Shown: piece after piece, positions 26,793 to 44,591 of the stretch
How positions within the stretch are numbered: the stretch's first letter is position 1
Layout: each line of letters starts with the position of its first letter
Assembly: GCA_903892035.1 (NCBI GenBank)
Contig: CAITGV010000001.1
Coordinates: 226,711 to 290,710, forward strand
Source: an uncultured bacterium
GTDB lineage: Bacteria; Patescibacteriota; Minisyncoccia; Phycocordibacterales; UBA9973
Reading direction: 5' to 3'
DNA length: 64,000 nt
The notes under the pieces: generated by a model
Told to the model about the DNA's origin: nothing
What the model saw: only the letters and a program-made list of their open reading frames with translations
The model's database searches: none
Position numbers and translations under genes: made by a program

Positions 26793-26801
26793 AAATACAA
26801 T

Positions 26802-27660: not shown

Positions 27661-28011
27661 ATGAAAAATAAAGTTTTACTCTTGGGAATTATCTCTCTTC
27701 TCCTGGTTTTTGTAGGTTTACTACAAGGACAAAAAGCAAATGCTGGGGTCGGGCTTTCTTTTGGAGGAAGAATCGTAACAACAGAAGTACCAGGGGTAGA
27801 ATGTGCAAGTGGGTATGGAATTATTTCAATTACCCCAGCAGGGAAATTTCAAGTTACAGATTACGCAACTACGGGTTTTTACCCAGTAGTAACACACGTT
27901 GGTGGATACATCCTTGGTTTATACAGTCCAATCATGGCTCCACTTTGCGTAGACGATGCAGGTACACCGTGGATGGCCTTCCCTGTAACATATTGGGGTT
28001 CAGGTAAATAA
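27661..28011 (+). CDS. Small secreted hypothetical protein (signal peptide)
   Basis: N-terminal signal peptide MKNKVLLLGIISLLLVFVGLLQG. First gene of the T4SS-like cluster. Confidence 0.45.
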   Translation: MKNKVLLLGIISLLLVFVGLLQGQKANAGVGLSFGGRIVTTEVPGVECASGYGIISITPAGKFQVTDYATTGFYPVVTHVGGYILGLYSPIMAPLCVDDAGTPWMAFPVTYWGSGK

Positions 28012-28012
28012 T

Positions 28013-28918
28013 ATGCAAAAATTTCTTCCTAGTAAAAAATTGGTAATCAAAATCGTAAGCATTGCTTTAATTTTAGTTATCATCTATTTTGCAATAAACC
28101 AAATAAGTAAAAACTCTATTAGTACCACAAACAACAACGACCCTAAAAATATTGCGAACCCGACAGTAGTTTTTACTAGCGTAGTACAACAAGATAGCAA
28201 TAACAATGGTATTCCAGACTGGGAAGAAACTCTCTGGGGACTGGACCCAAAAGGCAATGGTGATGCGAATAAAAAAATAATTGATGCAAAAAAAGCTACC
28301 TTACCTGATCAAGTAAACGGAAAAGATACTAGCGCCGACAATGAAACAACTCTTTTTGCAAAAGAGCTTTTTGCAAGTATTATGGCTTTAAAACAAAATG
28401 GCAATTTATCAGAGCAAAACGTATTGGCTCTTGGTAGTACACTGCAAGCAAATGTTTCAGAAAAAAAGGACATTCCTGATATTTATACGGAAAAATATTT
28501 AATTATAATAAATAGCAATACGCCAAATGACATTGAAAAATATAGACAAAATATGCAAAAGGCCATTGATCCATTTAATAAATCTGCAATGGGTAACGAA
28601 CTTTCAATAATGGCAAACATACTTTCAACTGGCGACAAATCTCAGCTTTCAGATTTGGTAGATATAGGTAAGACATATCAAAAATATGCAGAATCAATGG
28701 CAAAAGTACCAACACCGTCGGGAAATGTAAAAATTCAATTGGATATTGTGAACTCAACAGCAAAAACTGGACTAGCTATACAAAATATGTCTCAAATAAT
28801 AGACAATTCTCTTATTGGTTTACTTGGTGTCAGCCAATACGGCACATATATAGGGAAATATAACGATTCATTAAAAAATTTACATACCTATTTATTAAAT
28901 AATGCTATAATAAAATAG
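28013..28918 (+). CDS. Hypothetical bitopic membrane protein (N-terminal TM anchor)
   Basis: 301 aa, one TM (IVSIALILVIIYFAI), with an Asn/Lys-rich periplasmic domain. Topology resembles VirB8-like proteins, but no sequence motif confirms this. Confidence 0.4.
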   Translation: MQKFLPSKKLVIKIVSIALILVIIYFAINQISKNSISTTNNNDPKNIANPTVVFTSVVQQDSNNNGIPDWEETLWGLDPKGNGDANKKIIDAKKATLPDQVNGKDTSADNETTLFAKELFASIMALKQNGNLSEQNVLALGSTLQANVSEKKDIPDIYTEKYLIIINSNTPNDIEKYRQNMQKAIDPFNKSAMGNELSIMANILSTGDKSQLSDLVDIGKTYQKYAESMAKVPTPSGNVKIQLDIVNSTAKTGLAIQNMSQIIDNSLIGLLGVSQYGTYIGKYNDSLKNLHTYLLNNAIIK

Positions 28919-28922
28919 TAAT

Positions 28923-31394
28923 TTGATTTTAATGAAAAAATCATCACAAAAAATCATTGCTGGAGTATTATCTGTAGTACTAATTGCTCAAGTTTTTTTT
29001 CTTATTCCAACAAAAACAGCACAAGCAATTTCAATCGATGACGCAGCAAAATCTTTAACTGGTGCAATCGTTGGCTGTGCAGTGGGTATTGGTCTTCAGG
29101 CAATTGGGGCAACCACGAGTACGGCAGAATCTGCGGCTGCGGCTGCGCTGAGTGTAAGTGTGGTTGATGTTGTTGGTAACGCTCATTTGGGTGCAGTTGC
29201 AGGTGGAACTGCAGCAATAACAAACGTCCAAACTTGTTTAAACGCACTCGGAAAAGCTGCGGCTCAATTGGTATTGAAAGAAATTACCGCTGAAACAGTA
29301 AACTGGATAAACAGCGGTTTCAAAGGTCAGCCTCTTTTTGTAAAAAATCCTGGTTCATTTTTCAAAAGCATTGCCGACGAAGAAATTGGAAAATTTAGCG
29401 TGACAATTTCTGACTCAACAAAATATCCATTTGGAAAAGATTTCTTGAAATCATATTTGCTCGCAGCAAAAGCTGGTTTTGCTGGCAACGCACAATATAG
29501 TCTCGACAAAGTTCTCGCACAAGGAAATGGGGGAGTCGACGTCCACGCGAGTTTGAAATTCGTCGATGGTGGCGACTTCACACAAGGTGGGTGGACTGGT
29601 TGGGAAGCACTAACCCAATCGCCACAAAATAACCCGATTGGTTTTGGACTTTTAGCTGGTGACCAGCTTGGTTTTCAACTTTCTGGCACAGTTCAGTCTC
29701 CTGCAGATGTAGTTCACAGCCAACTTAATCAAAGTTTAGGTTTTCTTACTCCATCTGTCTGCGTTGACCCAAGAAACTATGAAGACCCCTCAAAAGATAC
29801 GAGTTTTACATTATCATCTGCCACAGCTCAAGCATCCCAAGACTATTCTACAAGCACAGATTCATATGACCCAACACAAGCAGCAAAAGATTGGCTGGCA
29901 AAGCACGTTTGTAAACGTTGGGAAACAACTACTCCGGGTGGAGTCATTGCAAATCAAATTTCAGCAACACTCAATGTTCCAAAAGATTCACTGATAAATG
30001 CAAACGATCTAAATTCTGACATCCAGGCAATTATGGATGCACTTCTAAACCAACTTTTTGACAAAGGACTTTCTTCACTTACTGATACTTCTAGTAATAC
30101 AAAAGTTTATGACAATAACAACAGTACCGGCCAAGGAGATAACAGCAACTCCACAAATTCAAGCGGCTCAAGTTGGAATAACAACAATCCAGTTGGTCCA
30201 AATAGTTACGTCCAACAAAACCAAGGAAACAATCCTTATCCAAATTTTGTTTGGCCAGATGATTTACCAAAAGTAATAGCAGACCAAACTGCATATGTAG
30301 ATGCGCTAAAAAATCAAAATAAAACTACACATGACTTGATTCGTGAAATTTATGAATTAGACTTTTGTGTTCCTGGACCACATCCTGGTTGGGAAAATAA
30401 TTTTCAACAAGGCACACAAAGTATAATTAATTCTCTACAAAGTCAGGTACCACAAGGTTCAGGCGCAACCCAAGATGTGATGTTTCAAATAATTAGTGGT
30501 TTGTTTTATCAGGTTTTTGGAGTCCCTGCTCATTTCAATAGTACAACACCCCACGTCGGCCTTGCTGGACAAGATATTGTAAAAGCGTATATGAGCAGTA
30601 TAGACGACCAAAATGGAGATTTTGCTTTTCAAAATAATACTTCCATCGCACCAGATTCAAAAGCGTGGTTCAATAAAATTGATTCCTACAAACAAAAGAT
30701 TAATGATAACGAAAATTCAATTTTGACTTACAATTCACTTATTCGTAGATTGGGTTACTTGCAGGACGAAGCAAAAGTACAAACTGATATAATTAAACAA
30801 TATGGTGGCCCACAAACTGGTCCAACAAATCCAAATATAAGTATGTCACCACAAGTTGATGCAGCACAACAGCAACTTGCTGTACTAAATAAAACCTTCA
30901 ATCGTATATATAAAGAGCTTGTAAATTCGGACATTGTAAAACAAGCAAATGACGAAACTCAGGGAATGATAGACGATATTGCAGATATTTCAAGTAGCTC
31001 TCGACCAGATTCTCTATTAAGTATTTGTATTAAAGAAACAATACCTACCTCTTCTAACCCTACTACTTACGTAGTACATCCATTTCGAACACCCTACATA
31101 GATACAACAAATCCAGATATTGATGCCCAGCATTGGGTTCACCCTGCAACAGTTTCATTTAATCATTTGACGTTCTACTATCCTACAATTTCTACTTTTT
31201 TGCCTTATTATTATATGTATACTTACCAACCAATAAACAGTGACCCAAATTTACACGCAATTAGTGTTGGTAGTAACACAAACTTTAATGATACAAGCAA
31301 CAATATGCCATACGGGCCAATTGGTCCAGATCTTTTGACTGGTCCACACAGAACAGGATTCAGCATTCTGGAACAAAAAACAGGTACTTGGTAA
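28923..31394 (+). CDS. Large secreted hypothetical protein (823 aa)
   Basis: Signal peptide/anchor, then Gly/Ala-rich stretch and Asn/Ser/Thr-rich regions. Part of the T4SS-like cluster. Confidence 0.45.
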   Translation: MILMKKSSQKIIAGVLSVVLIAQVFFLIPTKTAQAISIDDAAKSLTGAIVGCAVGIGLQAIGATTSTAESAAAAALSVSVVDVVGNAHLGAVAGGTAAITNVQTCLNALGKAAAQLVLKEITAETVNWINSGFKGQPLFVKNPGSFFKSIADEEIGKFSVTISDSTKYPFGKDFLKSYLLAAKAGFAGNAQYSLDKVLAQGNGGVDVHASLKFVDGGDFTQGGWTGWEALTQSPQNNPIGFGLLAGDQLGFQLSGTVQSPADVVHSQLNQSLGFLTPSVCVDPRNYEDPSKDTSFTLSSATAQASQDYSTSTDSYDPTQAAKDWLAKHVCKRWETTTPGGVIANQISATLNVPKDSLINANDLNSDIQAIMDALLNQLFDKGLSSLTDTSSNTKVYDNNNSTGQGDNSNSTNSSGSSWNNNNPVGPNSYVQQNQGNNPYPNFVWPDDLPKVIADQTAYVDALKNQNKTTHDLIREIYELDFCVPGPHPGWENNFQQGTQSIINSLQSQVPQGSGATQDVMFQIISGLFYQVFGVPAHFNSTTPHVGLAGQDIVKAYMSSIDDQNGDFAFQNNTSIAPDSKAWFNKIDSYKQKINDNENSILTYNSLIRRLGYLQDEAKVQTDIIKQYGGPQTGPTNPNISMSPQVDAAQQQLAVLNKTFNRIYKELVNSDIVKQANDETQGMIDDIADISSSSRPDSLLSICIKETIPTSSNPTTYVVHPFRTPYIDTTNPDIDAQHWVHPATVSFNHLTFYYPTISTFLPYYYMYTYQPINSDPNLHAISVGSNTNFNDTSNNMPYGPIGPDLLTGPHRTGFSILEQKTGTW

Positions 31395-31467
31395 TTCTCC
31401 ACACTCTCGCATAAATAAATAGCACTTTATTTCATTTTGTGTGATAAAATAAAATAGTTATACGCGG

Positions 31468-34400
31468 GTGCATATGAAAAAAAAGAATTTCATACAAAAA
31501 ATATTGATTGGCTTCATGCTCTGCGTGATTCTTCTCGCGCCTGTTTCTTTGTCTTTAAATAAAAATGATATAAAGAATTTTCTGGGAGGAAATAGAGCCG
31601 AAGCAGCAACGACACCAAATGCCATTCATGCGTCAAAATGGTATTACGTAAGTGATATTTCAGCTACAAGTGTAGGGAATACATCACTTACTTTAAAATT
31701 TAGTTTTAAAAAAATTGATAAATTAAGCATAGCTGTTGAAAGCTACGCAATATTAGTTTCTGTAAATGATGCAAACAATTTTACTACAACAAATGGGATA
31801 TCAACGGTAATTGCTGACGTTGAACCAACAACACAAAGTTGGGCAGATTCACCTGACACAATACCCGACCAAACTGCTACTTTTAATGACTTTTTCCCAG
31901 TAAGAGCACCTACTGACTATTACTTAAAAGCCAAATCAAATCAAACGGTAGGTTTTTTGCTTGGAAATATGGGTCTTTATTCTGATCCAATAAAAGTAAC
32001 CACCTTAGATAAAAACAACTCAATAGACCAACAAAATCAAAATGATCCAAATGCACTAAATTTAACTAATCCTGATCAAATTGATGTAAGTAATGACTTT
32101 AGTTGTGGATTTATTTCTAAAGATTCAAGCATACTGGGTTGTGTTGTTAAAATTACCTATTATGTTGTTTTTGTGCCTGCATCATGGGTATTTGAGTTAA
32201 CTGGAAAATTGTTTGATTTCTTTATTGGATACAGCTTGGACAGTAAATCTTACAGCGGATCAAGCATGATAACTGAAGGTTGGAAAATTGTTCGTGACAT
32301 TTCAAATATATTTTTTATATTTATTTTACTTTACGTTGCCATTGCAACAATTTTAGACTTACATGGTTTTGAAGCAAAGAAAATGATTGGTACTGTGGTC
32401 GTAATTGCAGTATTAATTAACTTTTCATTGTTTTTTACTCAAGTAATTATTGATACAGGAAACATTGCTGCTCGGGTTTTTTATAATGGAATTACAGTAA
32501 ATGGTCCAGACGGAACAGAGCTCAACTCAACTAATGGAAAACAACTTTCTGTTGCAATTGTAAATCAGTTTAAACCTCAGAAAATGTTTAATAAAACATT
32601 ACTAAACGAAAGCACCAGCATAAAGGATAGTAGCGGTAATATTGCGCAATTGGGTACTTCCGGTTATCAGGGATTTTTCATAATTATTACATTAATCGCA
32701 GCAGCAATTTGTTTACTTGGTGCTTACACATTCTTTATGTCTGCTTTTATCTTTCTCGGACGTGTGATTCAACTATGGATTTCAATGATATTCGCCCCTT
32801 TTGCTTTTGTTTCATATGTTGTTCCTGGCGCAAAAGGCATGAAGGGAATTGGTGCAGACTCTTGGTGGAAAGATTTACTTGGAAATGCATTTTTGGCACC
32901 AATTTTTATATTCTTCATTTATTTAATTATTCGATTTTTGAAAATAATCACGATCATTAACATTAGTAACGACGCATCACTTATGAGTATTGTGATGTCA
33001 ATCGTTATTCCTCTCTTAATTATAACTTTCCTTTTGATCAAAGCTCGTAAGATTGCCGAGAGTTTGGCGGGGGACATCGGTGGATATATGGTTACAGCGG
33101 CAAAAGCTGTGGGTGGCACTATTGTTGGAGCATCGATGGGTATTGCAGCTGTGGCTGGAAGGCAGACTGTGGGAAGAGGAGCAAACTGGCTTTCAAGCAA
33201 TAAAACTCTTGCAGAATGGTCATCTGGTAAAAAAGGTTGGGTAGCGCAAGCTCTTGCAAAACCTTTGTCATCGAAAGTAAATACACTTTCAAAATCAAGC
33301 TTTGATGTTCGTAATAGTGCTGGTGGCCAACAAGTTTCATCTCTCACTGGCTTTAACTTAAATAATGCAGGGACAAAATTTGCAACACTCGATACTGCAA
33401 ATACTGCTGGTGGTTGGGTAGGTAAACAGGCTCGCCAAGCTCAAAAAGAAAAAGAAATTGCCGAAAATCTAAACAAAGGTTACGACAAGGCTTTGTTTGA
33501 ACAACAAGATGAAGAAGTCCACCACAGAGAAGAAAAAATTCATGAGAAAGAAGAAGAAATTGCTGCAAAAACACTTAGTAGAGACCAGTTTACAAGAGGT
33601 ACACCACAATGGGAAGAAAATAATAAAGAATTGGCATTAATGAAACAAAATCTTTCAGTATTAAAAACTGGAGGGGTTATGAGAAAATATGTTGAAAAGG
33701 ATGAAATTGATCCTAATACAGGAGAAAAAACAGGTAATAAAATTAAAGTACTCGAAAATGAAAAAGATGCCGATGGTAAAGACAAAAAAACTGATGGCCT
33801 ATCAAAGATGCAGGGTGACCTTGCTAGAATTAAAACTGCACCGGAGACAGAATACTATGCAAATAAGCGTCGTGAATCTGGCCAGGTATTTATGGACGAC
33901 GAGCGTGACAAAAATGGAAACATTAAAAGATTTGGCAGACGCGTCACAGCAAACAATGCAGCTGCATATGAAACAGAAAGACTTACAAAGGATATAAGAA
34001 AACTCAATAACGAAATCGAAACAAGAAGAACAAAAAATCCAAATGATCCGAAAATCAAAGAGTTTGGTGAAAAAGTAACAGATTACGAAAAGAAAATTGG
34101 GGTATTACAATCTGAAAAAACTCTGGTTGATACTTTCCACAAAGATGCTTCGCAAGCAAAAAATAATGTTGCTTCACTAACAAAAGAAATACAAACACTA
34201 TATAAAAAAGGTGATCTAACAACTGCAGATAGAGCAACTATTGCTGAAAAGGAAGCTAAAATTAAAAACGAAACCGCAAAACTTACACCAAATGACGCAG
34301 TTAGTAAGGCAATGAAAAACCAAAAAGACTTAATTGGTGATATTAACTTCAAACAAGGAATGAAACAAATTGGAAAAGAAGCTGTTAAAGGATTCTTTGC

Positions 34401-34725
34401 TGGAGTTACTGATTGGCGTTCATGGGCTACTGCAACAGTCGGTTCAGCTATGGGTAAAAGTTTTGCAAAAGTATTGCTTGGAACTGGGGGTGGGGCTTTC
34501 GAATCAGTAAAACGCGTACTTATGGACTATAGTGGAAGAATGAATCAAGATATTGCAAAAGCGGCGGCGGCGAAGTTTGGAAAGTCTACATATGAAGCTC
34601 CGTCTGGAGGAGGTCACGGAGGTGGTGGACACGATGACCATCATGAAGAAGCACACGCTCCAGCATCAAATGGACACGGAGCAGGAGGTCACGATGATCA
34701 CGGTGGGGGAGGAAATAAACATTAG
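31468..34725 (+). CDS. VirB6/TrbL-like polytopic membrane protein with extracellular N-domain and long cytoplasmic coiled-coil tail
   Basis: Signal peptide and ~230-aa exodomain, at least 6 TM helices in the central region, then a ~550-aa charged coiled-coil C-terminus ending in a His/Gly-rich tail (GGHGGGGHDDHHEE..GGHDDHGGGG). This architecture is typical of Gram-positive-type VirB6 homologs. Confidence 0.5.
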   Translation: MHMKKKNFIQKILIGFMLCVILLAPVSLSLNKNDIKNFLGGNRAEAATTPNAIHASKWYYVSDISATSVGNTSLTLKFSFKKIDKLSIAVESYAILVSVNDANNFTTTNGISTVIADVEPTTQSWADSPDTIPDQTATFNDFFPVRAPTDYYLKAKSNQTVGFLLGNMGLYSDPIKVTTLDKNNSIDQQNQNDPNALNLTNPDQIDVSNDFSCGFISKDSSILGCVVKITYYVVFVPASWVFELTGKLFDFFIGYSLDSKSYSGSSMITEGWKIVRDISNIFFIFILLYVAIATILDLHGFEAKKMIGTVVVIAVLINFSLFFTQVIIDTGNIAARVFYNGITVNGPDGTELNSTNGKQLSVAIVNQFKPQKMFNKTLLNESTSIKDSSGNIAQLGTSGYQGFFIIITLIAAAICLLGAYTFFMSAFIFLGRVIQLWISMIFAPFAFVSYVVPGAKGMKGIGADSWWKDLLGNAFLAPIFIFFIYLIIRFLKIITIINISNDASLMSIVMSIVIPLLIITFLLIKARKIAESLAGDIGGYMVTAAKAVGGTIVGASMGIAAVAGRQTVGRGANWLSSNKTLAEWSSGKKGWVAQALAKPLSSKVNTLSKSSFDVRNSAGGQQVSSLTGFNLNNAGTKFATLDTANTAGGWVGKQARQAQKEKEIAENLNKGYDKALFEQQDEEVHHREEKIHEKEEEIAAKTLSRDQFTRGTPQWEENNKELALMKQNLSVLKTGGVMRKYVEKDEIDPNTGEKTGNKIKVLENEKDADGKDKKTDGLSKMQGDLARIKTAPETEYYANKRRESGQVFMDDERDKNGNIKRFGRRVTANNAAAYETERLTKDIRKLNNEIETRRTKNPNDPKIKEFGEKVTDYEKKIGVLQSEKTLVDTFHKDASQAKNNVASLTKEIQTLYKKGDLTTADRATIAEKEAKIKNETAKLTPNDAVSKAMKNQKDLIGDINFKQGMKQIGKEAVKGFFAGVTDWRSWATATVGSAMGKSFAKVLLGTGGGAFESVKRVLMDYSGRMNQDIAKAAAAKFGKSTYEAPSGGGHGGGGHDDHHEEAHAPASNGHGAGGHDDHGGGGNKH

Positions 34726-34740
34726 AAATTGTTGAATTTT

Positions 34741-34773
34741 TCCCTCTCATTTCAGGAGAGGGTCAGGGTTAGG
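34741..34773. repeat. Second-family hairpin module (CCCTCTC-ATTTCAG-GAGAGGG) downstream of VirB6-like gene
   Basis: 7-bp perfect stem, GC-rich, 16 nt after the stop codon. Same CCTCTC/GAGAGG motif as the repeats at 26701 and 35234. Confidence 0.55.
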
Positions 34774-34811
34774 TAAGATAGTTTGAATTTAATTTATGTT
34801 ACAATAAATAT

Positions 34812-35615
34812 ATGGACAAAGAAAAAGTAATGCAAAGAATAAAAGAAGCTTATGAAATTTTGCCTGAAGATATTCAGAAGGCAATTATGGATTCAAGCTA
34901 TCAAGAAACTCTTACTGACATTGCAAAAAATAATAAACTTACTTACGAGCAACTTGGAAGTTTGGAAATGCAAACTACAATGGTAATGCTCGGTCTCACG
35001 CACCCAAATAGTTTCCGCCACGACCTAGGCGAAGATTTGGAAATTAAAGACCAAGAACTCTTGAAAAAAATTGTTGAAGAAGTGAATGAAAGAATATTTA
35101 AAAATATTCGTGAATCACTCCAAGCAATACATGAAGTAAATGAATCTGACACCGACGACGACAATGAAACTTTTTGGAAAGTTGGTCACGAAAATGAAAA
35201 AGTGCCAGGCGATGGGGAAGATGAAGAGGAAATCACCTCTCCCCAACCCTCTCCTTATAAAGGAGAGGGAGCCCAACCCGCAGTTTCCCCCCTCATTAAT
35301 AAGGAGGGGGGTCAGGGGGGAGGTTCTTCTGACATCTTCAAAAAATCCGGCATTGAATTTATAAACCCCGTAGTAAAAGTTCCAACCCCAATTCCACAAC
35401 CGACAGATACCGAAAGAAATAAAATATTAAGTGGTGTAGAAAACCCTATCGCTGGAACATCGGCAATGAATGTCCCACCCAAAGAAAGTATTTTAGAAAA
35501 AAAACTTACAACTTCTTTTGGTTTGCCAAAAGTTGAAAGTGATCATACTGTTCCGAATATCACAAAAGCTGAAGATAAAAAAGTAAGTAGTGATCCGTAT
35601 CGAGAAGCAATCTAA
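34812..35615 (+). CDS. Acidic hypothetical protein carrying an in-frame palindromic-repeat insertion
   Basis: 267-aa ORF. Residues ~141-175 (ITSPQPSPYKGEGAQPAVSPLINKEGGQGGG) are encoded by a copy of the CCTCTCC/GGAGAGG repeat. Confidence 0.45.
   Translation: MDKEKVMQRIKEAYEILPEDIQKAIMDSSYQETLTDIAKNNKLTYEQLGSLEMQTTMVMLGLTHPNSFRHDLGEDLEIKDQELLKKIVEEVNERIFKNIRESLQAIHEVNESDTDDDNETFWKVGHENEKVPGDGEDEEEITSPQPSPYKGEGAQPAVSPLINKEGGQGGGSSDIFKKSGIEFINPVVKVPTPIPQPTDTERNKILSGVENPIAGTSAMNVPPKESILEKKLTTSFGLPKVESDHTVPNITKAEDKKVSSDPYREAI
35234..35333. repeat. Second-family palindromic repeat copy located inside a CDS
   Basis: CACCTCTCCCCAACCCTCTCCTTATAAAGGAGAGGG...CCCCCCTCATTAATAAGGAGGGGGG. The second hairpin is the reverse complement of the CTCCTTATTAATGAG module at 26770-26790. 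Confidence 0.75.
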
Positions 35616-36025
35616 TGCAATTCAAAGTTCCACAATTTATCGATGTTGAAGACAAGATTTTTGGGCCTTTCAGCTTCAAGGAATTTGCTTACATAGTCGG
35701 AGGCCTAGGTGCTTCATATGTAGTTTATAAAATAATGCCTTTAATTTTAGGTATTTTTCTTATAATCCCCATTCTTGCTCTTGCTGGGGCTCTGACATTT
35801 ATAAAAATCAACAATAGACCATTTATCGATATTCTTCAGTCGGCTTTTCAATACGCATTTCAAGATAAACTTTATGTTTGGAAAAAAGCTCAAAAGAAAA
35901 AGAAAAAAGTTGAAGAGGTGGTCGCAACAGAAAGTTTGGTTCCACGTTTATCTGAAAGTAAATTGAAAGATTTATCTTGGAGTTTAGATGTTTTGGATGC
36001 AAGAAAAAATAGTACTCCAAAATGA
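35615..36025 (+). CDS. VirB3/PrgI-like small membrane protein (two TM helices)
   Basis: 136 aa with two adjacent hydrophobic helices, sited immediately upstream of VirB4, as for PrgI/TcpE/VirB3. Assignment rests on position and topology only. Confidence 0.35.
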   Translation: MQFKVPQFIDVEDKIFGPFSFKEFAYIVGGLGASYVVYKIMPLILGIFLIIPILALAGALTFIKINNRPFIDILQSAFQYAFQDKLYVWKKAQKKKKKVEEVVATESLVPRLSESKLKDLSWSLDVLDARKNSTPK

Positions 36026-36827: not shown

Positions 36828-36828
36828 T

Positions 36829-38667
36829 ATGAGCATAATAGACGATTTGTTTGGAAAAAAAAATACGAAGGTTGGAACAGACAAACAAGTCCTGCCTGTT
36901 TTGCCGTCTGAAATTTACGAAGCAGCAACTCTAGACTTCCAAGACATCATAGCTCCCTCTGCTTTGCGTGTTGAACCAAAAGCACTAAATCTTGGAGAAA
37001 AATTGGCGCGCACTTATTTTGTCATTTCTTACCCTCGATATCTTACAGACAATTGGTTTTCACCAATCATCAATCTCGATAAAATTTTTGATGTTTCAAT
37101 TTTTATTCACCCGATAGATACAGCAGTAGTATTAAGGCAATTTCAAAAAAAAGTTGCCGAAGTTCAAAGCCAAATAAACGAACGTTCAAAAAAGGGTCTG
37201 GTGCGCGACCCAATGCTCGACACTGCATACCAAGACTTGGAAGGCCTGCGCAACAATTTAATGCAAGCTCAAGAAAAAATGTTTGACGTCGGACTCTACA
37301 TCACAATGTATGCTGACAATGAAAATGAACTTTTCAAAATTGAAAACGAAATCAAATCAATTTTAGAATCTCGCCTAGTATATTTTAAACCAGCTCTCTT
37401 CCAGCAAGAAGAAGCTTTCAAGAGCGTAATGCCGACTGGCACCGACCTCCTAAATATTCACCAAAAATTAAATTCTGAACCACTCTCATCAATTTTTCCT
37501 TTCGTTTCTTTTGACCTCACTTCGGATAAAGGAATTCTTTACGGCGTGAATCGCCACAATTCTAGTCTTGTTATTTTTGATCGTTTCTCTTTGGAAAATT
37601 ACAACTCTATCACTTTTGCAAAATCTGGTTCTGGAAAATCATACGCTACAAAATTGGAAATCATTCGTACATTAATGTTTGATACAGAGGTAATAGTTAT
37701 CGACCCCGAGCGTGAATACGAATACCTTGCAGAAGCCATCGGTGGAAGATATTTCAATATCTCTCTTTCTTCAGATCACCATATCAACCCTTTTGATTTG
37801 CCAATACCAAGAAGTGATGAAAATCCTGCGGACATTTTGCGTTCAAATATCATAAACCTCGTCGGTCTTTTCCGTATTATGCTCGGAGGCTTAACTCCTG
37901 AAGAAGATTCAATTATCGATCGCGCAATCAGTGAAACTTACGCGCTTAAAGATATTTCAGCAGAATCAGATTTTTCAAATATCGAGCCACCACTTTTGTC
38001 TGATTTCGAAATGGTTCTATCTGGAATGGAGGGGAGTGAGTCTATTATTCAACGTCTTACAAAATACACTCGTGGCACGTGGTCTACTTTCATAAACCAG
38101 CCTTCAAATGTGGATATAAATCGTAAATTTGTCGTTTTCTCTGTACGTGATATGGAAGACGAGCTAAAACCAGTGGCAATGTACATAGTCACTCACTTTA
38201 TCTGGAATGCTGTTCGCAAAAACTTAAAAAAGAGGCTTCTTGTTGTGGATGAGGCATGGTGGATGATGAAATCTGACGACACAGCCTCTTTCCTTTACTC
38301 AATTGCAAAACGAGGCCGTAAATATTTCCTTGGTCTTGCGACAATTACCCAAGACGTCGGCGACTTTATGAAAAGCCCGTACGGTGTGCCAATTGTCACA
38401 AACTCTTCAATTCAAATGCTTTTAAAACAATCACCTTCGACTATCGACCTACTACAAAAGACCTTTAACCTTACAGATGAAGAAAAATATCTACTCCTTG
38501 AGTCAAATGTGGGGGAGGGCATATTCTTTGCGGGACTCAAACACGTTGCAATTAAAATTATTTCATCATATACGGAAGACCAAATTATTACTTCCGACCC
38601 ATCGCAGGTTTTAGCAATAAAAAAAGCAAAGGATGATTTGGCGGCAAGTGAATCTGGGCAGAAATAA
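36829..38667 (+). CDS. VirB4-family conjugation/T4SS ATPase, core and C-terminal ATPase domain
   Basis: RTYFVISYPR (VirB4 middle-domain motif), Walker A ITFAKSGSGKSYA, Walker B LLVVDEAWWMM. Confidence 0.8.
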   Translation: MSIIDDLFGKKNTKVGTDKQVLPVLPSEIYEAATLDFQDIIAPSALRVEPKALNLGEKLARTYFVISYPRYLTDNWFSPIINLDKIFDVSIFIHPIDTAVVLRQFQKKVAEVQSQINERSKKGLVRDPMLDTAYQDLEGLRNNLMQAQEKMFDVGLYITMYADNENELFKIENEIKSILESRLVYFKPALFQQEEAFKSVMPTGTDLLNIHQKLNSEPLSSIFPFVSFDLTSDKGILYGVNRHNSSLVIFDRFSLENYNSITFAKSGSGKSYATKLEIIRTLMFDTEVIVIDPEREYEYLAEAIGGRYFNISLSSDHHINPFDLPIPRSDENPADILRSNIINLVGLFRIMLGGLTPEEDSIIDRAISETYALKDISAESDFSNIEPPLLSDFEMVLSGMEGSESIIQRLTKYTRGTWSTFINQPSNVDINRKFVVFSVRDMEDELKPVAMYIVTHFIWNAVRKNLKKRLLVVDEAWWMMKSDDTASFLYSIAKRGRKYFLGLATITQDVGDFMKSPYGVPIVTNSSIQMLLKQSPSTIDLLQKTFNLTDEEKYLLLESNVGEGIFFAGLKHVAIKIISSYTEDQIITSDPSQVLAIKKAKDDLAASESGQK

Positions 38668-38672
38668 AAATT

Positions 38673-38738
38673 ATACCACCCCCGATTCGATTACGAATCT
38701 CCCCCTCCTAAATTAGGAGGGGGTAAAGGGGGTGGTAT
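38673..38738. repeat. GC-rich nested-hairpin repeat element copy 3
   Basis: ATACCACCCCCGATTCGATTACGAATCTCCCCCTCCTAAATTAGGAGGGGGTAAAGGGGGTGGTAT. Same orientation as copy 1. Starts 6 nt after the VirB4 stop. Confidence 0.8.
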
Positions 38739-38768
38739 CTTGTACATATTTTTACTATAATATAAACA

Positions 38769-39752
38769 ATGAAAAGAATTTTATTTTCTTTCTTGATATT
38801 GGCTATATTTATGCCTTTTTCTCTGGCTCTTGCTGCTGGTCAAGTTTCAGCTTCAAGTATAAACGTCGCAATCAATCCTGAAGTTCCAGGACCAAATACA
38901 AATACTTCAATAACACTTTCGAGCTATGCGACAGACATAAATCGTGCATTAATCTCCTGGACACTAGACGGGAAGACGATGCAGTCTGGTATTGGAAAAA
39001 CAATTTTTTCTTTCACTACAAAAGGCGTAGGAACAGCCACAACAGTTACGGTAAATATAAGTATTGATTTACAACCCGCAATTACAAAAACAATAGTCAT
39101 TACTCCCGCAGATGTAGATATGCTTTGGGAAGCTATCGATTCATATGTGCCACCTTTCTACAAAGGTAAAGCCATGCCAAGCTCTGAAGCAAAAATAAAG
39201 GTCACAGCAATGCCCAATATAAAAGGCGCAAACGGAGTAAAAATAAAATCTTCAGATATGGTTTACAATTGGAAACACAATTACGACAACGATCCAAACG
39301 GTTCTGGTTACGGAAAAGATTCCTACATAGTAAATGCAAATTATTTAAATAATTCTGAAATTGTTGATTTGAGTGTTTCGTCAGTAAGCAATTCTAGTGC
39401 AGCATCGGGTAGGGCAGTGCTCGTGACTGGGGACCCTAAAATTGTTTTTTATCAAAAGGATCCACTTGAAGGAATAAAGTATGAAAATGCTTTAAAAACT
39501 GATTTAAATCTCTCAACAGATGAGACAACCTTGGTCGCAGAACCATATTTCTTTTCACCCGCTGATATAAATTCTTCAAAATATAAATACACATGGAACA
39601 TAAATGGTAGCGCAGTGGACACTCCAGCAAAAAAGAATGTGATGACTCTTCGAAAAGGACCAACTGGAGGAACTGCAAATATTTCTCTAGAAATCGAAAA
39701 CGTATTAAAATTATTCCAAGACGCAAAGCAGAATTTAAACATTAACTTCTAA
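38769..39752 (+). CDS. Secreted hypothetical protein (signal peptide, Ser/Thr/Asn-rich)
   Basis: Signal peptide MKRILFSFLILAIFMPFSLALAAG. Predicted beta-rich extracellular protein within the T4SS-like cluster. Confidence 0.45.
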   Translation: MKRILFSFLILAIFMPFSLALAAGQVSASSINVAINPEVPGPNTNTSITLSSYATDINRALISWTLDGKTMQSGIGKTIFSFTTKGVGTATTVTVNISIDLQPAITKTIVITPADVDMLWEAIDSYVPPFYKGKAMPSSEAKIKVTAMPNIKGANGVKIKSSDMVYNWKHNYDNDPNGSGYGKDSYIVNANYLNNSEIVDLSVSSVSNSSAASGRAVLVTGDPKIVFYQKDPLEGIKYENALKTDLNLSTDETTLVAEPYFFSPADINSSKYKYTWNINGSAVDTPAKKNVMTLRKGPTGGTANISLEIENVLKLFQDAKQNLNINF

Positions 39753-41890
39753 TGAAAATGAATAAAAAAATTAAAATAATTTTTCTATCCGCCTTATTGA
39801 TAATCACCGGATTTTTTGCAATCAAAGCAAGCGCTGCAACACCAGCAGGTTTTACAGGAACAACAGTAGCTGACGGCTCTACTTTATATAAATATGACTC
39901 AACTTGTGCAGTTGGTGCTGGAATATTCAAAAAACAACGCGGAATAATTGTCCCAACCAATGCAACGTCTGTATCAAAAGGTTACATATATTTCCATGGA
40001 TTAAACACATCCACAAACCCAACATCAGACTACATGTGTACTACTTCAGGACTTTGTGCTTCAGCAAAAGCTGAAAATTCAGTCATTTTTACACCTGAAA
40101 CAAATGTTACGGGACAGACTGCTCAAACAGTAGGATACAAAGATGAATTTGATTGTTTCATACAGGAAGCAAAAACAAAACTTCAATCACTTCATATTGG
40201 TGTTCCAAATACAATTGATATTGCAGGTCACAGTGCAGGAGCAAAACTTGTAATGAATACAGTGAACCTTGCGCCAGGGTTTTCCACAAGTAGTAGGGTG
40301 GACGCAATTATTTTTGATGGTTGCTATGGAAATTGGTGTAATCAAATTATTGCCTCGCCCCACACAAATCATGTATATCTTTACTATCAAACTCAAGATA
40401 CAGACGGTACTGGTCCACTTTCAATTGCCGCATATAATACAAATAAAACAAAAGCAAGTATTTTAAAAGTTGAGGCTGGACACTATAGAATTCCTGCAAA
40501 ATGTTTTATGGACCACATAAATGGAGATAAGTGTGGTGCTCCTGAAGTTCCTTCAGACCAAGGTTACAACGTAGATGTAAAACAGGTTGCGGGAACGGTG
40601 GCAAATTCTTCAAAAATTACGGTCACATATAGCGGTTTTACTGAAACAACTCCAGCTAGAATAAATATGGAATATGCAAGTGCTGCAGAAAATGACAGCC
40701 CAGCACAAAGTGCAACAATATCCATGACCGCAAGTTCAAGTCCTCAAACAATAGAAAAAACTTTTAGTAACCTTACAGACCAAACAGAATATAGAATTAC
40801 GGTTACAGAAGATAAATCGTTCGACGACCCTAGTAGATTATCGTATAGTGACCCTGTAACTTTTACTCAATCAACTGTAATAAATGGCAACGGGGATAAC
40901 AAACTTGATTGTAGTGATCCAAAAAATACAGACAATCAGGATTGTAAATGTACAACAGGGTATTGTTTACTTCAACCAATTGCGGGATTAAAAACTATTC
41001 CAGATAGTACATCAATTTCTACATATTTAAATATAATGTTTAAAATTGGTATTGGTCTAGCAGCTGTCCTTGCTGTGATAATGATCGTCATCGGTGGAAT
41101 ACAATATATGTCCACAGATGCAATATCTGGAAAAGAAGACGGCAAACACCGCATCAAGGGCGCTCTCACTGGCCTCATCCTCGCTCTCGGTGCATGGGCA
41201 CTTCTAAACACAATCAACCCCGACCTCGTCCTCATAAAACTCGACCTCAAAAGCGCACAAGTTAAGATAGACACCTCAAGTGTCGACGTACCAGCAACTA
41301 ATCTAACCACAGGCTCTCCTGTTTGTGGTGGTAAATACAAAGTTGGAGACGTATGGCAAGCAGATGATGTTATTAGAAAAAAATACACTGATACTTTTGG
41401 AAGCAGTTCAGTTAATGTTGGAAATTGTAAAACAGTTGGACAACATTCTTGTACCAGTCTTGCAGGGCTTCCAGATAGCACATACTCAGGTATGAAAAAA
41501 TTAGAAGATGCAATAATTAGTGCTCAAGTTAATATTCTACCTGGACCATCTTGTAAGGATTACACTTGTCTAGAAATCACAGGAGGTACTGAATGTTGGG
41601 ACCATGGGAACAGTCAAAGTACGCACATACCAGGAAGTGATGTTGTTGATTTGCTTAATAGTAACCAGTTAAATCAATTTTTAACAACTTTTGCAAATGG
41701 ATCAAATAATAATAAAGGATATACAAGAACTATAGGTCAATTTGGTTTAACACCAAATGCAACTCTCTATGTTTATCAATGGGGAGGAACAGGTAATGAT
41801 TATTTATCTATAGTTCACGAAACAGTACCAGACCATTTTCATGTTTTAAGTTGGATGGGACCACCACCGGCACAGTGGCCAAAACAATAA
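39752..41890 (+). CDS. Secreted multidomain protein: alpha/beta-hydrolase-like (GHSAG) N-domain + VirB2-pilin-like TM hairpin + Cys-rich C-domain
   Basis: Signal peptide. Nucleophile-elbow motif DIAGHSAGAKLV. Two hydrophobic helices separated by a short charged loop (IGIGLAAVLAVIMIVIGGIQYM-STDAISGKEDGKHRIKG-ALTGLILALGAWALLNTI), as in VirB2/TrbC pilins. C-terminal ~200 aa has 10 Cys. Confidence 0.5.
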   Translation: MKMNKKIKIIFLSALLIITGFFAIKASAATPAGFTGTTVADGSTLYKYDSTCAVGAGIFKKQRGIIVPTNATSVSKGYIYFHGLNTSTNPTSDYMCTTSGLCASAKAENSVIFTPETNVTGQTAQTVGYKDEFDCFIQEAKTKLQSLHIGVPNTIDIAGHSAGAKLVMNTVNLAPGFSTSSRVDAIIFDGCYGNWCNQIIASPHTNHVYLYYQTQDTDGTGPLSIAAYNTNKTKASILKVEAGHYRIPAKCFMDHINGDKCGAPEVPSDQGYNVDVKQVAGTVANSSKITVTYSGFTETTPARINMEYASAAENDSPAQSATISMTASSSPQTIEKTFSNLTDQTEYRITVTEDKSFDDPSRLSYSDPVTFTQSTVINGNGDNKLDCSDPKNTDNQDCKCTTGYCLLQPIAGLKTIPDSTSISTYLNIMFKIGIGLAAVLAVIMIVIGGIQYMSTDAISGKEDGKHRIKGALTGLILALGAWALLNTINPDLVLIKLDLKSAQVKIDTSSVDVPATNLTTGSPVCGGKYKVGDVWQADDVIRKKYTDTFGSSSVNVGNCKTVGQHSCTSLAGLPDSTYSGMKKLEDAIISAQVNILPGPSCKDYTCLEITGGTECWDHGNSQSTHIPGSDVVDLLNSNQLNQFLTTFANGSNNNKGYTRTIGQFGLTPNATLYVYQWGGTGNDYLSIVHETVPDHFHVLSWMGPPPAQWPKQ

Positions 41891-41892
41891 TA

Positions 41893-41944
41893 TTTATGTC
41901 AAAACAAAAATTCATCTTCATAGTTTCAATGGTAATCGTCGGAT
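41893..41944 (+). repeat. 52-bp direct repeat, left copy (contains a 16-codon duplicate of the 5' end of the gene at 43211)
   Basis: Identical over 52 nt to 43208-43259. Encodes MSKQKFIFIVSMVIVG then a stop. Confidence 0.85.
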
Positions 41945-41946
41945 AG
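41896..41946 (+). pseudogene. Truncated duplicate of the N-terminus of the downstream beta-propeller membrane protein gene
   Basis: ATG at 41896. MSKQKFIFIVSMVIVG* is identical to the first 16 codons of the gene starting at 43211. Confidence 0.6.
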
Positions 41947-41988
41947 GGTTAGTGGGTTTAGACACTGATGATTTGTGCATACCTATAT

Positions 41989-42016
41989 TTGACAAAAAAT
42001 TGGTAGTTGCTATACT
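41989..42016 (+). promoter_or_regulatory. Strong sigma70-like promoter TTGACA-16-TATACT driving the DUF4143 ATPase gene
   Basis: Consensus -35 TTGACA (41989-41994) and TATACT (42011-42016), 8 nt upstream of the ATG at 42025. Confidence 0.55.
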
Positions 42017-42024
42017 AGTTTTAT

Positions 42025-43161
42025 ATGGAAAATTATATAAACCGGAGCTATAAAATAGAAGACCTAGTAATCGCAGGTAAAGTTCTTGTAGTATACGGTC
42101 CAAGAAGATCCGGTAAAACAACCTTAATAAAAAACTATACTGACAAATTAAAAACGAATTTTTTAGTAGATTCTGGAGACAATATCATAGTGCAAGAAAT
42201 TTTAAGTTCTGGTGATACAAATAGAATACTTGCCCGAGTTGAGGGATTATCTGTATATGTACTTGATGAAGCGCAAAATGTCGCGAACATTGGGCAGGCA
42301 CTTAAAATAATAATTGACGCAAGACCCGATCTGATAGTCATAGCTACAGGATCTTCCTCATTTGATCTAGCAAATAAATTAGGAGAACCATTGGTCGGTA
42401 GAAGAGAAATTGTTACACTATACCCCTTTGCACTTCAAGAACTAAATAAAAATTTTCCAAGAAACATACTTGATGATAATTTAAACTCTTTTCTTGTTTA
42501 TGGCCTTTACCCGCAGGTTTACAATTCAAAAACTAATTTCGAAAAGGAATCTCGTTTGCAAGAAATAGTGGAAGGATATTTGCTAAAAGATATTTTTGCT
42601 TTGGAACAAATAAAGTCACCTTCAAAATTGTTGCATTTAATTAAGCTACTTGCGCAATATATAGGCCAGCCGATAGCACTAAATAAACTAGCAGGAGAAG
42701 TTGGTCTCAATCAAAAAACAGTAGAAAGATATTTAGATCTTTTGGAAAAAACTTTTGTTATAAAAAAAATTATGCCTTTTTCAACAAAACTCAGCCAGAG
42801 CTTGAAATTTAAACCTAAATATTATTTTTACGATCTTGGTATTAGAAATTCATTGCTTGGAAATTTCCTACCTCCACCTGAAAGAGCTGATGTGGGTAGT
42901 CTATGGGAAAACTTTTGTTATATTGAAATAATTAAATTGAATGCTTACAAAAGAAAATCTCATCCTCAATATTTTTTCTATAAGTCATACCAAAATAATG
43001 ATGAAATTGATATAATTGAAGAATACAATGGGTACAAAGCCTTTGAGTGTAAGTGGAAATTTAGCAGAGATATGGTAAATATGGAAGAGTGGGACAATGC
43101 ATACCCAAACTCAAAAATTAAAGTGATAACAAGAGATAATTATTACGATTTTATTGTCTAG
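42025..43161 (+). CDS. AAA+ ATPase of the DUF4143/COG1373 family
   Basis: N-terminal P-loop VVYGPRRSGKTTLIKN, Walker B VYVLDEAQ, C-terminal region typical of DUF4143 ATPases. Confidence 0.7.
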   Translation: MENYINRSYKIEDLVIAGKVLVVYGPRRSGKTTLIKNYTDKLKTNFLVDSGDNIIVQEILSSGDTNRILARVEGLSVYVLDEAQNVANIGQALKIIIDARPDLIVIATGSSSFDLANKLGEPLVGRREIVTLYPFALQELNKNFPRNILDDNLNSFLVYGLYPQVYNSKTNFEKESRLQEIVEGYLLKDIFALEQIKSPSKLLHLIKLLAQYIGQPIALNKLAGEVGLNQKTVERYLDLLEKTFVIKKIMPFSTKLSQSLKFKPKYYFYDLGIRNSLLGNFLPPPERADVGSLWENFCYIEIIKLNAYKRKSHPQYFFYKSYQNNDEIDIIEEYNGYKAFECKWKFSRDMVNMEEWDNAYPNSKIKVITRDNYYDFIV

Positions 43162-43207
43162 AGATAGTAGTTTAATTTTATTTGCATTATAATGATACAA
43201 GCACACA

Positions 43208-43259
43208 TTTTATGTCAAAACAAAAATTCATCTTCATAGTTTCAATGGTAATCGTCGGA
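43208..43259 (+). repeat. 52-bp direct repeat, right copy (native 5' end of the downstream gene)
   Basis: Identical to 41893-41944. Confidence 0.85.
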
Positions 43260-44591
43260 TTGATTTTGGCATTTTGGATTGCCTCTGTTTTTATCACTAA
43301 ACAAAAAAGTGGGGGAGGACCAGTAACAATTCGAGATTTTTTTCCTATTTCAAATAGTCCAATTTCAAATACACCACCAGTAAACATAAATGGAAATGGT
43401 GAAACACTACCAACAGACAACGGTAATACAAACACTCCACCAAAATTCCGCCAAATTTCAAACTTTGCAGTAGCGGGTGCAACAGTTGTAGATGAAACAC
43501 CAGTGGCTCCTATTGTGGCAAAAACAAAGGTATCAAAAACAGTTCCAGCGACTCCTCCAATACCTCCAGTTTACGCTATACGCTACGTAGAACGCGCTAC
43601 AGGGCATTTATTTGAACAAATACTAGGAAGCTGGACTGAGAAAAAAGTTACGAATACGACGATTCCAAGCATTTACGAAGCAATGTTTGGAAATAATGGA
43701 AATTCTGCATTCTTGCGCTATTTAAATAGTGACAATCAAACAATTGAGAGTTTTTCTGGTTCAATTCCACTTCCAAAAGTACCAGCAAAAACTGCAAGTA
43801 CAACAGTTACGACTACAAATACTGCGACAGTAGCAAATGCTCTACCTATTGGAAATGATGTGGCAGAAACTCCAATACCAGAACTACTTGGTACATTTTT
43901 TCCTGAAAATATTTCAAGTGCAGTAGTATCTCCAGACGGAAGCAAAGTCTTTTATTTAAGTAGTTTTGGAGATCAAACTCTTGGTACATCAGCAAATCTC
44001 GACGGTACTAAAAAATCTCAATTCTTTACATCGAGTTTTAGTGAGTGGATTCCACAGTGGCCAACAGCTCGCATAATGACAATAACAACAAAAGCTTCTG
44101 CAAGCGTCCCAGGTTTTGTTTATACCCTAGACACACAAACAGGAGATATGAATAAAATTATTGGAGGACTTAAGGGGCTCACAACGCTTACAAGCAGTGA
44201 TGGAAAAAATATGCTTTACAGTGTATCAAATGGTAAAGATTTTTCACTTTATTCATATTCACTCAAAACAAATACAACAACAAATTTAAATATAAAAACA
44301 CTTCCAGAGAAGTGTGTGTGGTCAAGTGACAATATTACAGTTTACTGTGGTGTTCCAGTAAGTCCCGACGCTGGTGCTTACCCAGATGTATGGTACCAAG
44401 GTCTTACATCTTTCAATGACCAAATTTGGAAAATAAATACAGCTACAAGTGAGTTCAATATGATTGGTGACCCAAATTCCGATGTAAATGTATCGATGGA
44501 TGCGACAAAATTAATTCTCGACAAAACAGAGAGTAACCTATTTATAGTAAACAAAAAAGATTCTAAATTGTGGAGTCTAGCTCTACAGTAA
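43211..44591 (+). CDS. Membrane-anchored protein with predicted beta-propeller (TolB-like) periplasmic domain
   Basis: Start at the ATG of MSKQKFIF (the ORF-track start at 43182 is upstream of the repeat). N-terminal TM, Pro-rich linker, repeated SPDGSKVFY / SSDGKNMLYS motifs as in TolB/WD40-like propeller blades. Confidence 0.5.

Follow-up and report, generated by a model that had tools for sequence, protein, structure and literature searches.

A type IV secretion-like gene cluster beside the replication origin of an uncultured Patescibacteria member

We describe a cluster of genes resembling a type IV secretion system (T4SS) at positions 27661-44591 of a 64-kb stretch of bacterial DNA from contig CAITGV010000001.1; the whole stretch is referred to below as the window. 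The cluster contains 12 open reading frames (ORFs) of at least 100 aa, all on the plus strand, which also holds every substantial ORF between 22035 and 44591 (Table 1). A first-pass annotation, made by reading the sequence, had counted 13 consecutive genes on one strand; the strand is correct, but the count is not, and one of the 12 ORFs is an insertion. Its description of the cluster as largely secreted and membrane proteins agrees with a Kyte-Doolittle hydropathy scan, on which all membrane and export calls given here are based. Eight of the 12 ORFs (the 116-, 301-, 823-, 1085-, 327-, 712- and 469-aa proteins and the PrgI-like protein) have an N-terminal hydrophobic segment or transmembrane (TM) helices, and four are cytoplasmic (the 267- and 229-aa proteins, VirB4 and a 378-aa ATPase).

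The window spans the replication-origin region. The gene ksgA adjoins the cluster upstream, and jag, yidC and rnpA (minus strand), followed by dnaA and dnaN, adjoin it downstream. GC content is low throughout (0.33-0.43), and that of the cluster (0.34-0.38) is like that of the remainder.

To place the cluster among its relatives, VirB4 was searched for in a set holding a single genome for each GTDB species, which gave at least 589 relatives (confirmed candidate stretches). The counts of loci reported below refer to the best 80 of 589, and conservation was assessed by tblastn of every window protein against these 80 related loci.

Table 1. Features of the cluster, its repeats and its surroundings, by position in the window
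Feature	Position	Strand	Remarks
116-aa small exported Cys-containing protein	27661-28011	+	variable accessory gene
301-aa membrane-anchored protein	28013-28918	+	N-terminal TM segment; first gene of the conserved block
823-aa exported protein	28923-31394	+	fold unmatched; directly upstream of the VirB6-like gene
1085-aa extended VirB6-like polytopic channel protein (putative)	31468-34725	+	call from homologues and structure model
267-aa cytoplasmic protein	34812-35615	+	no TM segment
136-aa PrgI/VirB3-like membrane protein	35615-36025	+	Pfam PrgI
229-aa TrsD-like protein	36138-36827	+	free-standing copy of the VirB4 N-terminal domain; NCBIfam and Pfam
612-aa VirB4 ATPase	36829-38667	+	alternatively read from GTG at 36793
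327-aa secreted beta-rich protein	38769-39752	+	signal-like N-terminus
712-aa exported multidomain protein	39752-41890	+	T4SS_pilin
AAA_14/DUF4143 ATPase (378 aa)	42025-43161	+	DUF4143 E = 7.6e-33; AAA_14 E = 2.7e-24
Membrane-anchored protein of about 459 aa (469-aa ORF)	43212-44591	+	N-terminal TM segment; last gene of the conserved block
Left copy of perfect 52-nt direct repeat	41893-41944	+	duplicated, truncated 5' end of the 469-aa gene (MSKQKFIFIVSMVIVG, then a stop)
Right copy of 52-nt direct repeat	43209-43260	+	holds the real ATG of the 469-aa gene
Promoter-like site	41989-42016		best of the region: near-consensus, 11/12 matches plus TG; before the ATPase gene
Three successive CCTCTCC/GGAGAGG-type hairpins	26701-26793	+	between uvrD and ksgA, upstream of the cluster; z -4.9
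Single CCCTCTC/GAGAGGG hairpin	34742-34775	+	after the VirB6-like gene; z -1.8, not significantly better than shuffles
CCTCTCC/GGAGAGG hairpin copy	35235-35325	+	in frame in the linker of the 267-aa gene, encodes SPQPSPYKGEGAQPAVSPLINKEGGQGGG; dG -53 kcal/mol, z -4.6
Y-shaped GC-rich element	38676-38735	+	gap between the VirB4 and 327-aa genes; dG -45.5 kcal/mol, z -6.8
Further Y-shaped element	3561-3619	+	dG about -45 kcal/mol, z about -7
Further Y-shaped element	14668-14726	-	dG about -45 kcal/mol, z about -7
ksgA	26778-27653
dnaA	46784-48184
Tyrosine recombinase	13741-14655		only one in the window; 13 kb upstream of the cluster
ComM-like Mg-chelatase ATPase	19091-20644		7 kb upstream of the cluster
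PilB-like T2SSE protein	56770-58776	-	about 12 kb from the cluster
788-aa protein	22035-24401	+	long Pro/Thr-rich N-terminus, Gly/Ala-rich hydrophobic middle; no family match
DUF5663 protein	24427-24732	+	after the 788-aa gene and on its strand; the pair lies shortly before uvrD
170-aa ORF	5653-6165	+	PaaX_M/Cas2-like domain (E = 8e-14); no other CRISPR-Cas gene noticed nearby

Core components of the apparatus

Several genes of the cluster can be assigned to families found in T4SSs. The VirB4 ATPase proposed at first pass matches NCBIfam conju_CD1110 with 380.4 bits over profile positions 182-733 (curated cut-off 325), Pfam P-loop_TraG with 88 bits (cut-off 25.8) and the VirB4 family model TIGR00929 (E = 9e-30). 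Its translation contains a Walker A motif (KSGSGKSY), a Walker B motif (LLVVDEAW) and the RTYFVISYPR motif that had been read earlier. All scores against MPF-T equivalog models lie far under their cut-offs.

The TrsD-like protein matches three profiles of the VirB4 N-terminal domain: VirB4_plasma (E = 4.4e-9, positions 101-233), TrsD (E = 1.2e-6) and positions 9-118 of conju_CD1110. These matches are significant, yet under the curated cut-offs of what are whole-protein models. The public gene call for this protein carries a precomputed assignment to the Pfam family TraC-like, PF26593. If VirB4 is read from its upstream GTG, the two ORFs overlap, and a single frameshifted gene was therefore considered and ruled out. 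In all 78 related loci compared, the TrsD-like ORF is closed by a stop codon of its own that lies 1-65 nt ahead of the VirB4 ATG, whether or not the two share a frame, and the split is therefore ancestral.

The first-pass call of a two-TM protein of VirB3/PrgI type is likewise borne out. This protein, encoded two genes upstream of VirB4, matches Pfam PrgI with 33.2 bits (cut-off 27), has a hydrophobic stretch at aa 27-67 and is present in 74 loci.

The 1085-aa protein comprises an N-terminal ectodomain, a TM core, a long charged coiled-coil and a His/Gly-rich tail. It had been called VirB6/TrbL-like, a call that homologues and structure uphold and that direct searches do not, as the protein itself gives no Pfam or NCBIfam match. 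A minority of its homologues match TrbL/VirB6, and the best PDB matches of its confident structure model (pLDDT 84) are the R388 VirB6 protein TrwI and Legionella DotA. The identification as a VirB6-like protein is supported on these two grounds.

We looked for the components of a conjugative system across the 64-kb window using Pfam and NCBIfam scans of the submitted ORFs, reading the remaining housekeeping ORFs by eye. Neither a relaxase, nor a coupling protein of VirD4/TcpA type, nor VirB11 was found, in agreement with the first-pass annotation. VirB5 and VirB7-VirB11 were also not detected, nor were oriT or adhesin genes at the locus.

Conservation beside the replication origin

The closest VirB4 relatives, the best 80 of 589, are 76-88% identical and nearly all come from metagenome-assembled genomes labelled Nomurabacteria, Paceibacteria, Parcubacteria or Patescibacteria, in keeping with the small-genome Patescibacteria affiliation suggested at first pass. 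The conserved block extends from 28013 to 44591. In loci of full length the commonest order is uvrD-ksgA-301-823-VirB6-267-PrgI-TrsD-VirB4-327-712-469 (numbers are protein lengths in aa) followed by jag-yidC-rnpA-dnaA, and most other orders differ only by weakly conserved genes missed by tblastn. Position and flanks are unchanged in most of the 80 genomes. Because the same order recurs beside jag-yidC-rnpA-dnaA in most of them, the block is not a mobile element; it is machinery of the chromosome that is passed on vertically.

Median identities are 81% for VirB4, 69% for DnaA, 62% for TrsD, 59% for UvrD, 50% for PrgI, 49% for KsgA and 26-43% for the exported proteins. VirB4 is thus at least as conserved as DnaA, which clearly points to strong constraint on it, bearing in mind that the loci were picked by VirB4 similarity and its figure is biased upward. 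Five further proteins are conserved in the block without having a family assignment: the exported or membrane-anchored proteins of 301, 823, 327 and about 459 aa, and the cytoplasmic protein of 267 aa.

The cluster is real and encodes a T4SS. We consider it highly probable that this is the chromosomal system of a Nomurabacteria-like Paceibacteria bacterium within the Patescibacteria, and that it does not conjugate DNA. The first-pass annotation had likewise favored a minimal, non-classical T4SS-like apparatus over a conjugative element, and both the profile matches and the conserved gene order beside dnaA speak for that view.

The same data bear on whether the cluster could be a decayed or domesticated integrative conjugative element (ICE) whose relaxase, coupling protein and integrase have been lost or lie just outside the window. 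Its nearest profiles outside the Patescibacteria are indeed conjugative (CD1110 of clostridial conjugative transposons, the VirB4 of mycoplasma ICEs, Mbov_0395 and staphylococcal TrsD), and a published VirB4 phylogeny, in the passages available to us, nests the Patescibacteria clade within conjugative MPF-FATA systems (PMC12102498). However, dozens of species-level genomes share the gene order and also its neighbors, ksgA at one end and jag-yidC-rnpA-dnaA at the other, neither an integrase nor att-like borders adjoin the cluster, the only tyrosine recombinase of the window is 13 kb away, and base composition is uniform. The conservation of VirB4 relative to DnaA, read with its selection bias, further points to strong purifying selection on a host function. 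We therefore regard such a remnant as very improbable. An ancient conjugative origin of the chromosomal T4SS is likely, which concerns its ancestry and not its present function.

Exported proteins, an insertion and repeats

The VirB2-pilin-like hairpin noticed at first pass is part of the 712-aa protein. Pfam T4SS_pilin matches aa 419-488 with 29.6 bits (cut-off 26.6), within a two-TM hairpin at aa ~404-492 that also matches the pilin-like protein Mbov_0395 of a mycoplasma ICE (E = 3e-7). Only aa ~400-510, consisting of the hairpin and a preceding YxLLAPL motif, are conserved, and they are so in 70 of 70 loci. The N-terminal region is genome-specific, with a GHSAG motif and FN3-like sequence, and nothing in the 70 loci matches the opening ~375 residues of the protein. 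The C-terminal domain is Cys/His-rich (GGTECWxH...HxPGxxxxDL...HxH), has invariant Cys, His and Asp residues and is matched in ~13 loci. Family and profile-profile searches with this domain gave no assignable family and no recognized hydrolase domain. A zinc peptidase of LAS/M15 type, seen by eye in the H-x7-D...HxH pattern, was dropped as unsupported after profile-profile comparison with VanY-carrying orthologues returned a probability of 0.3%.

Positional orthologues of the 712-aa protein carry T4SS_pilin in 54 of 63 cases, and TrbC/VirB2 is also matched in 5 of the 63. Fused to the hairpin in these 63 orthologues are NlpC/P60 (12), VanY (8), YkuD (5), SLT-type (4), Peptidase_M15_4 (3), Amidase_5 (3), Amidase_2 (1) and 3D (1) domains; a wider homologue set has the same domains and M23. 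Given the signal peptide and the two TM helices of the hairpin, the domains on either side of it should be exposed to the outside, and in the orthologues the protein looks like a VirB1 function tethered to a VirB2-like anchor. A modest new detail is that the orthologues use this hairpin to hold hydrolase domains for the cell wall, which are exchanged from genome to genome among about ten Pfam families; this is a small addition and not a new kind of system. The fusion is not mentioned in the passages of PMC12102498 and PMC10633639 available to us.

A bolder idea, which we put forward as doubtful, is that in this lineage the VirB2-like hairpin is not a pilus subunit at all. It would instead be a conserved anchor, serving in the membrane or in secretion, on which exchangeable enzymes are displayed at the T4SS. 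These enzymes would cut the wall of the host and not that of their own cell, making the machine a wall-breaching port for feeding or attachment. In sister genomes they would be the wall hydrolases, drawn from about ten Pfam domain families, and in this genome the unassigned Cys/His-rich domain together with the GHSAG-motif domain. If this were true, domain swapping would track host range.

The hydrolase domains also raise the question of whether the cluster is no secretion machine but a conserved operon for building the envelope or cell wall that happens to include an ATPase. Many members of the cluster are exported and without family assignment, 712-aa orthologues bear peptidoglycan-modifying domains and some orthologues of the 469-aa ORF bear PG_binding_1, and the wider neighborhood includes genes for an M23/LysM peptidase and a PBP1A-like protein (the latter recognized only by reading its translation). 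Against this, four T4SS-specific families occur in canonical adjacency, with PrgI-TrsD-VirB4 together, VirB6 upstream and the pilin domain downstream, and VirB4 is a family described as a T4SS hallmark in the passages of PMC12102498 at hand. We judge this explanation extremely unlikely. The first-pass annotation had itself named a conserved non-secretion operon, or the failure of VirB4 and VirB6 in profile searches, as grounds against a secretion system; both were checked and neither was found, the PrgI assignment held up as well, and a chromosomal T4SS remains our reading.

The other exported proteins are less easily placed. Direct scans of the 116-, 301-, 823-, 1085-, 267-, 327- and 469-aa proteins against Pfam, NCBIfam and PHROGs gave nothing above threshold. 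Profile searches against PDB sequences gave no significant match for the VirB6-like, 823-, 301- and 327-aa families or for the C-terminal family of the 712-aa protein, and weak but consistent TolB matches for the 469-aa family. Orthologues were pooled and scanned together, and for single hits (TSP3_bac, Ig_3, BiPBP_C) we infer the protein to which each belongs.

The 301-aa protein, with orthologues in 34 loci, has a helical ectodomain and a thrombospondin-type-3-like motif, DxDxDGxxDWEE, in which D61 and W70 are invariant and G66, D69, E71 and E72 nearly so. TSP3_bac matches four members of the pooled set, and judging by the motif these most likely are 301-aa orthologues. The 823-aa protein, present in 45 loci, has a conserved N-terminal core (TVNWINSGFxGxPxFV) and a variable C-terminus; its invariant residues are W128-I129-N130, G132, G135, P137, C280 and T337-P338-G339. 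The virB5 gene often sits directly upstream of virB6, the position that the 823-aa gene has here. Shorter homologues of the protein reach 23-27 bits against Pfam DUF4141, under the gathering threshold of 30.

In the 267-aa protein, found in 42 loci, a conserved N-terminal domain of ~100 aa (sometimes duplicated) is joined by a variable linker to a conserved C-terminal DPYRE motif. It has no family match itself, and the pooled scan gave none attributable to its orthologues. The 327-aa protein is found in 76 loci with a median identity of 37%. Weak Ig_3 and BiPBP_C matches in the pooled set are assigned to it, and it is possibly Ig-like. The protein of the 469-aa ORF, in 66 loci, starts at the ATG at 43212, and its public gene call is 448 aa long. 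All 12 PDB profile matches listed for it are to TolB, weakly (E = 0.016-0.2), so that a TolB-like beta-propeller is probable; PG_binding_1 occurs in 5 of 26 of its orthologues (E = 7.7e-9).

The 116-aa protein lies outside the conserved block. It has a single N-terminal hydrophobic segment, and of 32 loci inspected ~8 have a similar small ORF in the gap that separates ksgA from the 301-aa gene. We considered it as a VirB2 pilin and rejected this: the NCBIfam VirB2 score is 15.6 bits (E = 0.012) against a cut-off of 103, there is one hydrophobic segment only, and the protein is not conserved.

The AAA_14/DUF4143 ATPase gene lies within the run of genes counted at first pass. Perfect 52-nt direct repeats, consisting of codons 1-16 of the 469-aa gene and the TTT before them, flank a 1,316-bp (1.3-kb) segment, within 41893-43260, that contains it. 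The gene is absent from 77 of the 80 related loci, occurs at other positions in the remaining three and is found at this site in none of the 80. At locus L003 the junction is uninterrupted, with the stop of the 712-aa gene followed directly by the ATG. From these comparisons the gene is evidently a strain-specific insertion and not part of the T4SS, an event that had been overlooked. It may have arisen with a very long target duplication or by cassette recombination, or may be an artefact of assembly or of population variation.

GC-rich hairpins are real features of the window, with eight found against none in 20 shuffles. The first-pass annotation had placed them at 26701, 34741, 35234 and 38673 and regarded them as marking the edges and interior of the cluster; their existence stands and the marking does not. 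They are a genome-wide repeat family and do not mark the cluster: further copies are present at 3561-3619 and 14668-14726, the downstream edge has none, and the one at 35235-35325 is inside coding sequence. Subtypes are a Y-shaped element and the CCTCTCC/GGAGAGG hairpins, of which those at 26701-26793 are counted in the same superfamily of repeats. The in-frame copy at 35235-35325 is translated as SPQPSPYKGEG...GGQGGG, with PQPSPYKEEG in its place in the orthologues at L009 and L004. It resembles the in-frame palindromic elements of Rickettsia. Hairpins are also seen within the L048 orthologue of the 267-aa gene.

The Y-shaped element is 60-70 nt long. Its outer stem (ACCACCCCC/GGGGGTGGT) encloses two hairpins, one small and variable, the other invariant (CCCCCTCC-TAAWTTA-GGAGGGGG). 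Its exact 23-nt core is present in 87 metagenome contigs, and loci L085-L167 carry copies. A further 28 full elements were recovered, in which the small hairpin keeps its pairing through compensatory double changes at two positions. The element could be a REP-like (repetitive extragenic palindromic) or MITE-like (miniature inverted-repeat transposable element) DNA element, or a structured RNA. Two other identities were tried and dropped for the hairpins: they have no T tails and none is called by a terminator scan, which speaks against intrinsic terminators, and no Rfam match places them in a known RNA family.

The sole other secretion-type ATPase of the window is the PilB-like T2SSE protein, which has an MshEN N-terminal domain (390 bits) and is taken to be a type IV pilus ATPase.

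Probable function and relation to known systems

The system type appears to be the Gram-positive one (monoderm, MPF-FATA-related), a class assigned by profile match. Following the established architecture of T4SSs, from the R388 structures and Gram-positive systems (PMC12857230), VirB4 together with TrsD would dock on PrgI and the VirB6-like protein and energize a translocon in the cytoplasmic membrane. The pilin-hairpin protein and the secreted proteins would build the part that spans the wall and reaches the surface, and in orthologues the hairpin-tethered peptidoglycan hydrolase would open the wall, the role of VirB1.

The most likely role is the transfer of proteins or other molecules between epibiont and host, or a pilus-like contact structure. 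DNA conjugation is unlikely, given that the window encodes neither a relaxase nor a coupling protein and that the locus keeps a fixed chromosomal position. The most likely role is suggested by analogy, since it is the one proposed for the essential T4SS of Southlakia epibionticum.

A DNA-uptake (competence-type) T4SS such as Helicobacter ComB or archaeal Ced would also do without a relaxase and coupling protein while importing DNA. Besides that shared absence in the window, there is a weak match of VirB4 to the profile of the DNA-import ATPase CedB (E = 3.7e-7, 29 bits), the ComM-like gene 7 kb upstream, and the occurrence of T4SSs near competence genes in ABY1-class Patescibacteria reported in passages of PMC12102498. 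However, the CedB score is far below both the cut-off of 700 and the 380 bits of the conjugative-type profile, and neither comEC nor comF is next to the cluster in the window. In S. epibionticum, according to the passages of PMC10633639 and PMC12857230 that we could draw on, competence needs comEC and type IV pili, and deletion of comEC abolishes transformation and leaves viability unaffected, whereas the T4SS is essential. DNA uptake seems to us an improbable function for the locus.

Several observations weigh against reading the locus as a chromosomal, non-conjugating T4SS. The VirB6 call depends on marginal Foldseek E-values (best 8.7e-3) and on a minority of homologues, and AlphaFold2 modeling of the N-terminal core of the 823-aa protein, a structure prediction that had been advised at first pass, gave a pLDDT of 59 and no meaningful match in a fold search. 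A VirB8 profile search, also advised, found nothing: no match of VirB8, PrgL or TcpC type was obtained for cluster proteins or scanned orthologues by sequence profiles only, the folds of the 301- and 327-aa proteins not having been predicted. Profile scans detected no VirB1-like domain in this genome's own proteins. Finally, a coupling protein or relaxase may lie beyond the 64-kb window; coupling-protein homologues far from virB4 are common in Patescibacteria according to the passages of PMC12102498 at our disposal.

The kind of locus described here is already known from work of 2023-2025, and most ultra-small Patescibacteria carry such a cluster beside the replication origin. We say this because it fits, point by point, the descriptions in those parts of PMC12102498 and PMC10633639 that were available. 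In these, Quinonero-Coronel et al. (2025) report from 3,035 Patescibacteria genomes a monophyletic VirB4 clade nested in MPF-FATA. Genes for TrsD, PrgI, VirB6 and VirB2-like (PF18895) proteins are abundant around virB4 in their survey, those for VirB8 and VirB1 are rare, relaxases are nearly absent, and in Paceibacteria the T4SS lies close to dnaA, dnaN, rnpA and ksgA (PMC12102498). Wang et al. (2023) report that the T4SS and pilins of Southlakia epibionticum, SEML1_0006-0019, are essential for epibiotic growth (PMC10633639; see also PMC12857230, likewise in part).

Our locus shares with the systems of this clade VirB4, a separate TrsD, PrgI/VirB3, VirB6 and a VirB2-like pilin (PF18895), the lack of a relaxase and of a nearby coupling protein, the chromosomal place beside dnaA, dnaN, rnpA and ksgA, and a monoderm-type architecture without VirB7, VirB9 and VirB10. 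In Saccharimonadia there is an array of small pilin genes, whereas here a single pilin-like domain is contained within the 712-aa protein. The hydrolase fusions of its orthologues and the strain-specific ATPase-gene insertion in the operon likewise set the locus apart from the Patescibacteria T4SSs as described in the passages available to us.

The best profile matches are shared with MPF-FATA systems (Prg/Pcf of pCF10, Trs of pGO1/pSK41, CD1110 of C. difficile CTn2 and the mycoplasma ICEs): VirB4 pairs with conju_CD1110, TrsD with pGO1, PrgI with pCF10 and the pilin-like domain with Mbov_0395. Also common to both would be a membrane translocon with no outer-membrane core and, judging by the orthologues of the 712-aa protein, a wall hydrolase. 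The locus differs from them in that no relaxase, coupling protein, oriT, adhesin or VirB8-like protein was detected and it is not mobile, and in having a VirB2-like pilin domain, a feature absent as a rule from Gram-positive systems (PMC12857230). With the MPF-T systems (Trw of R388, VirB of Agrobacterium) it has in common a VirB6 core fold similar to TrwI, the TIGR00929 match of VirB4 and TrbC/VirB2 in a few pilin orthologues, whereas VirB5, VirB7-VirB11 and VirD4 were not detected here and MPF-T equivalog scores are far too low.

Before the Patescibacteria system, no T4SS had been reported as essential to the survival of its own carrier. One well-resolved example from Paceibacteria adds little alone. 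What it offers is an 11-gene block conserved beside oriC, including five proteins without a family assignment. The conservation of this block, the constraint suggested for VirB4 and the coupling of hairpin and hydrolase leave fewer candidates for that part of the machine which lies outside the cell, and provide targets that can be tested in cultivable relatives.

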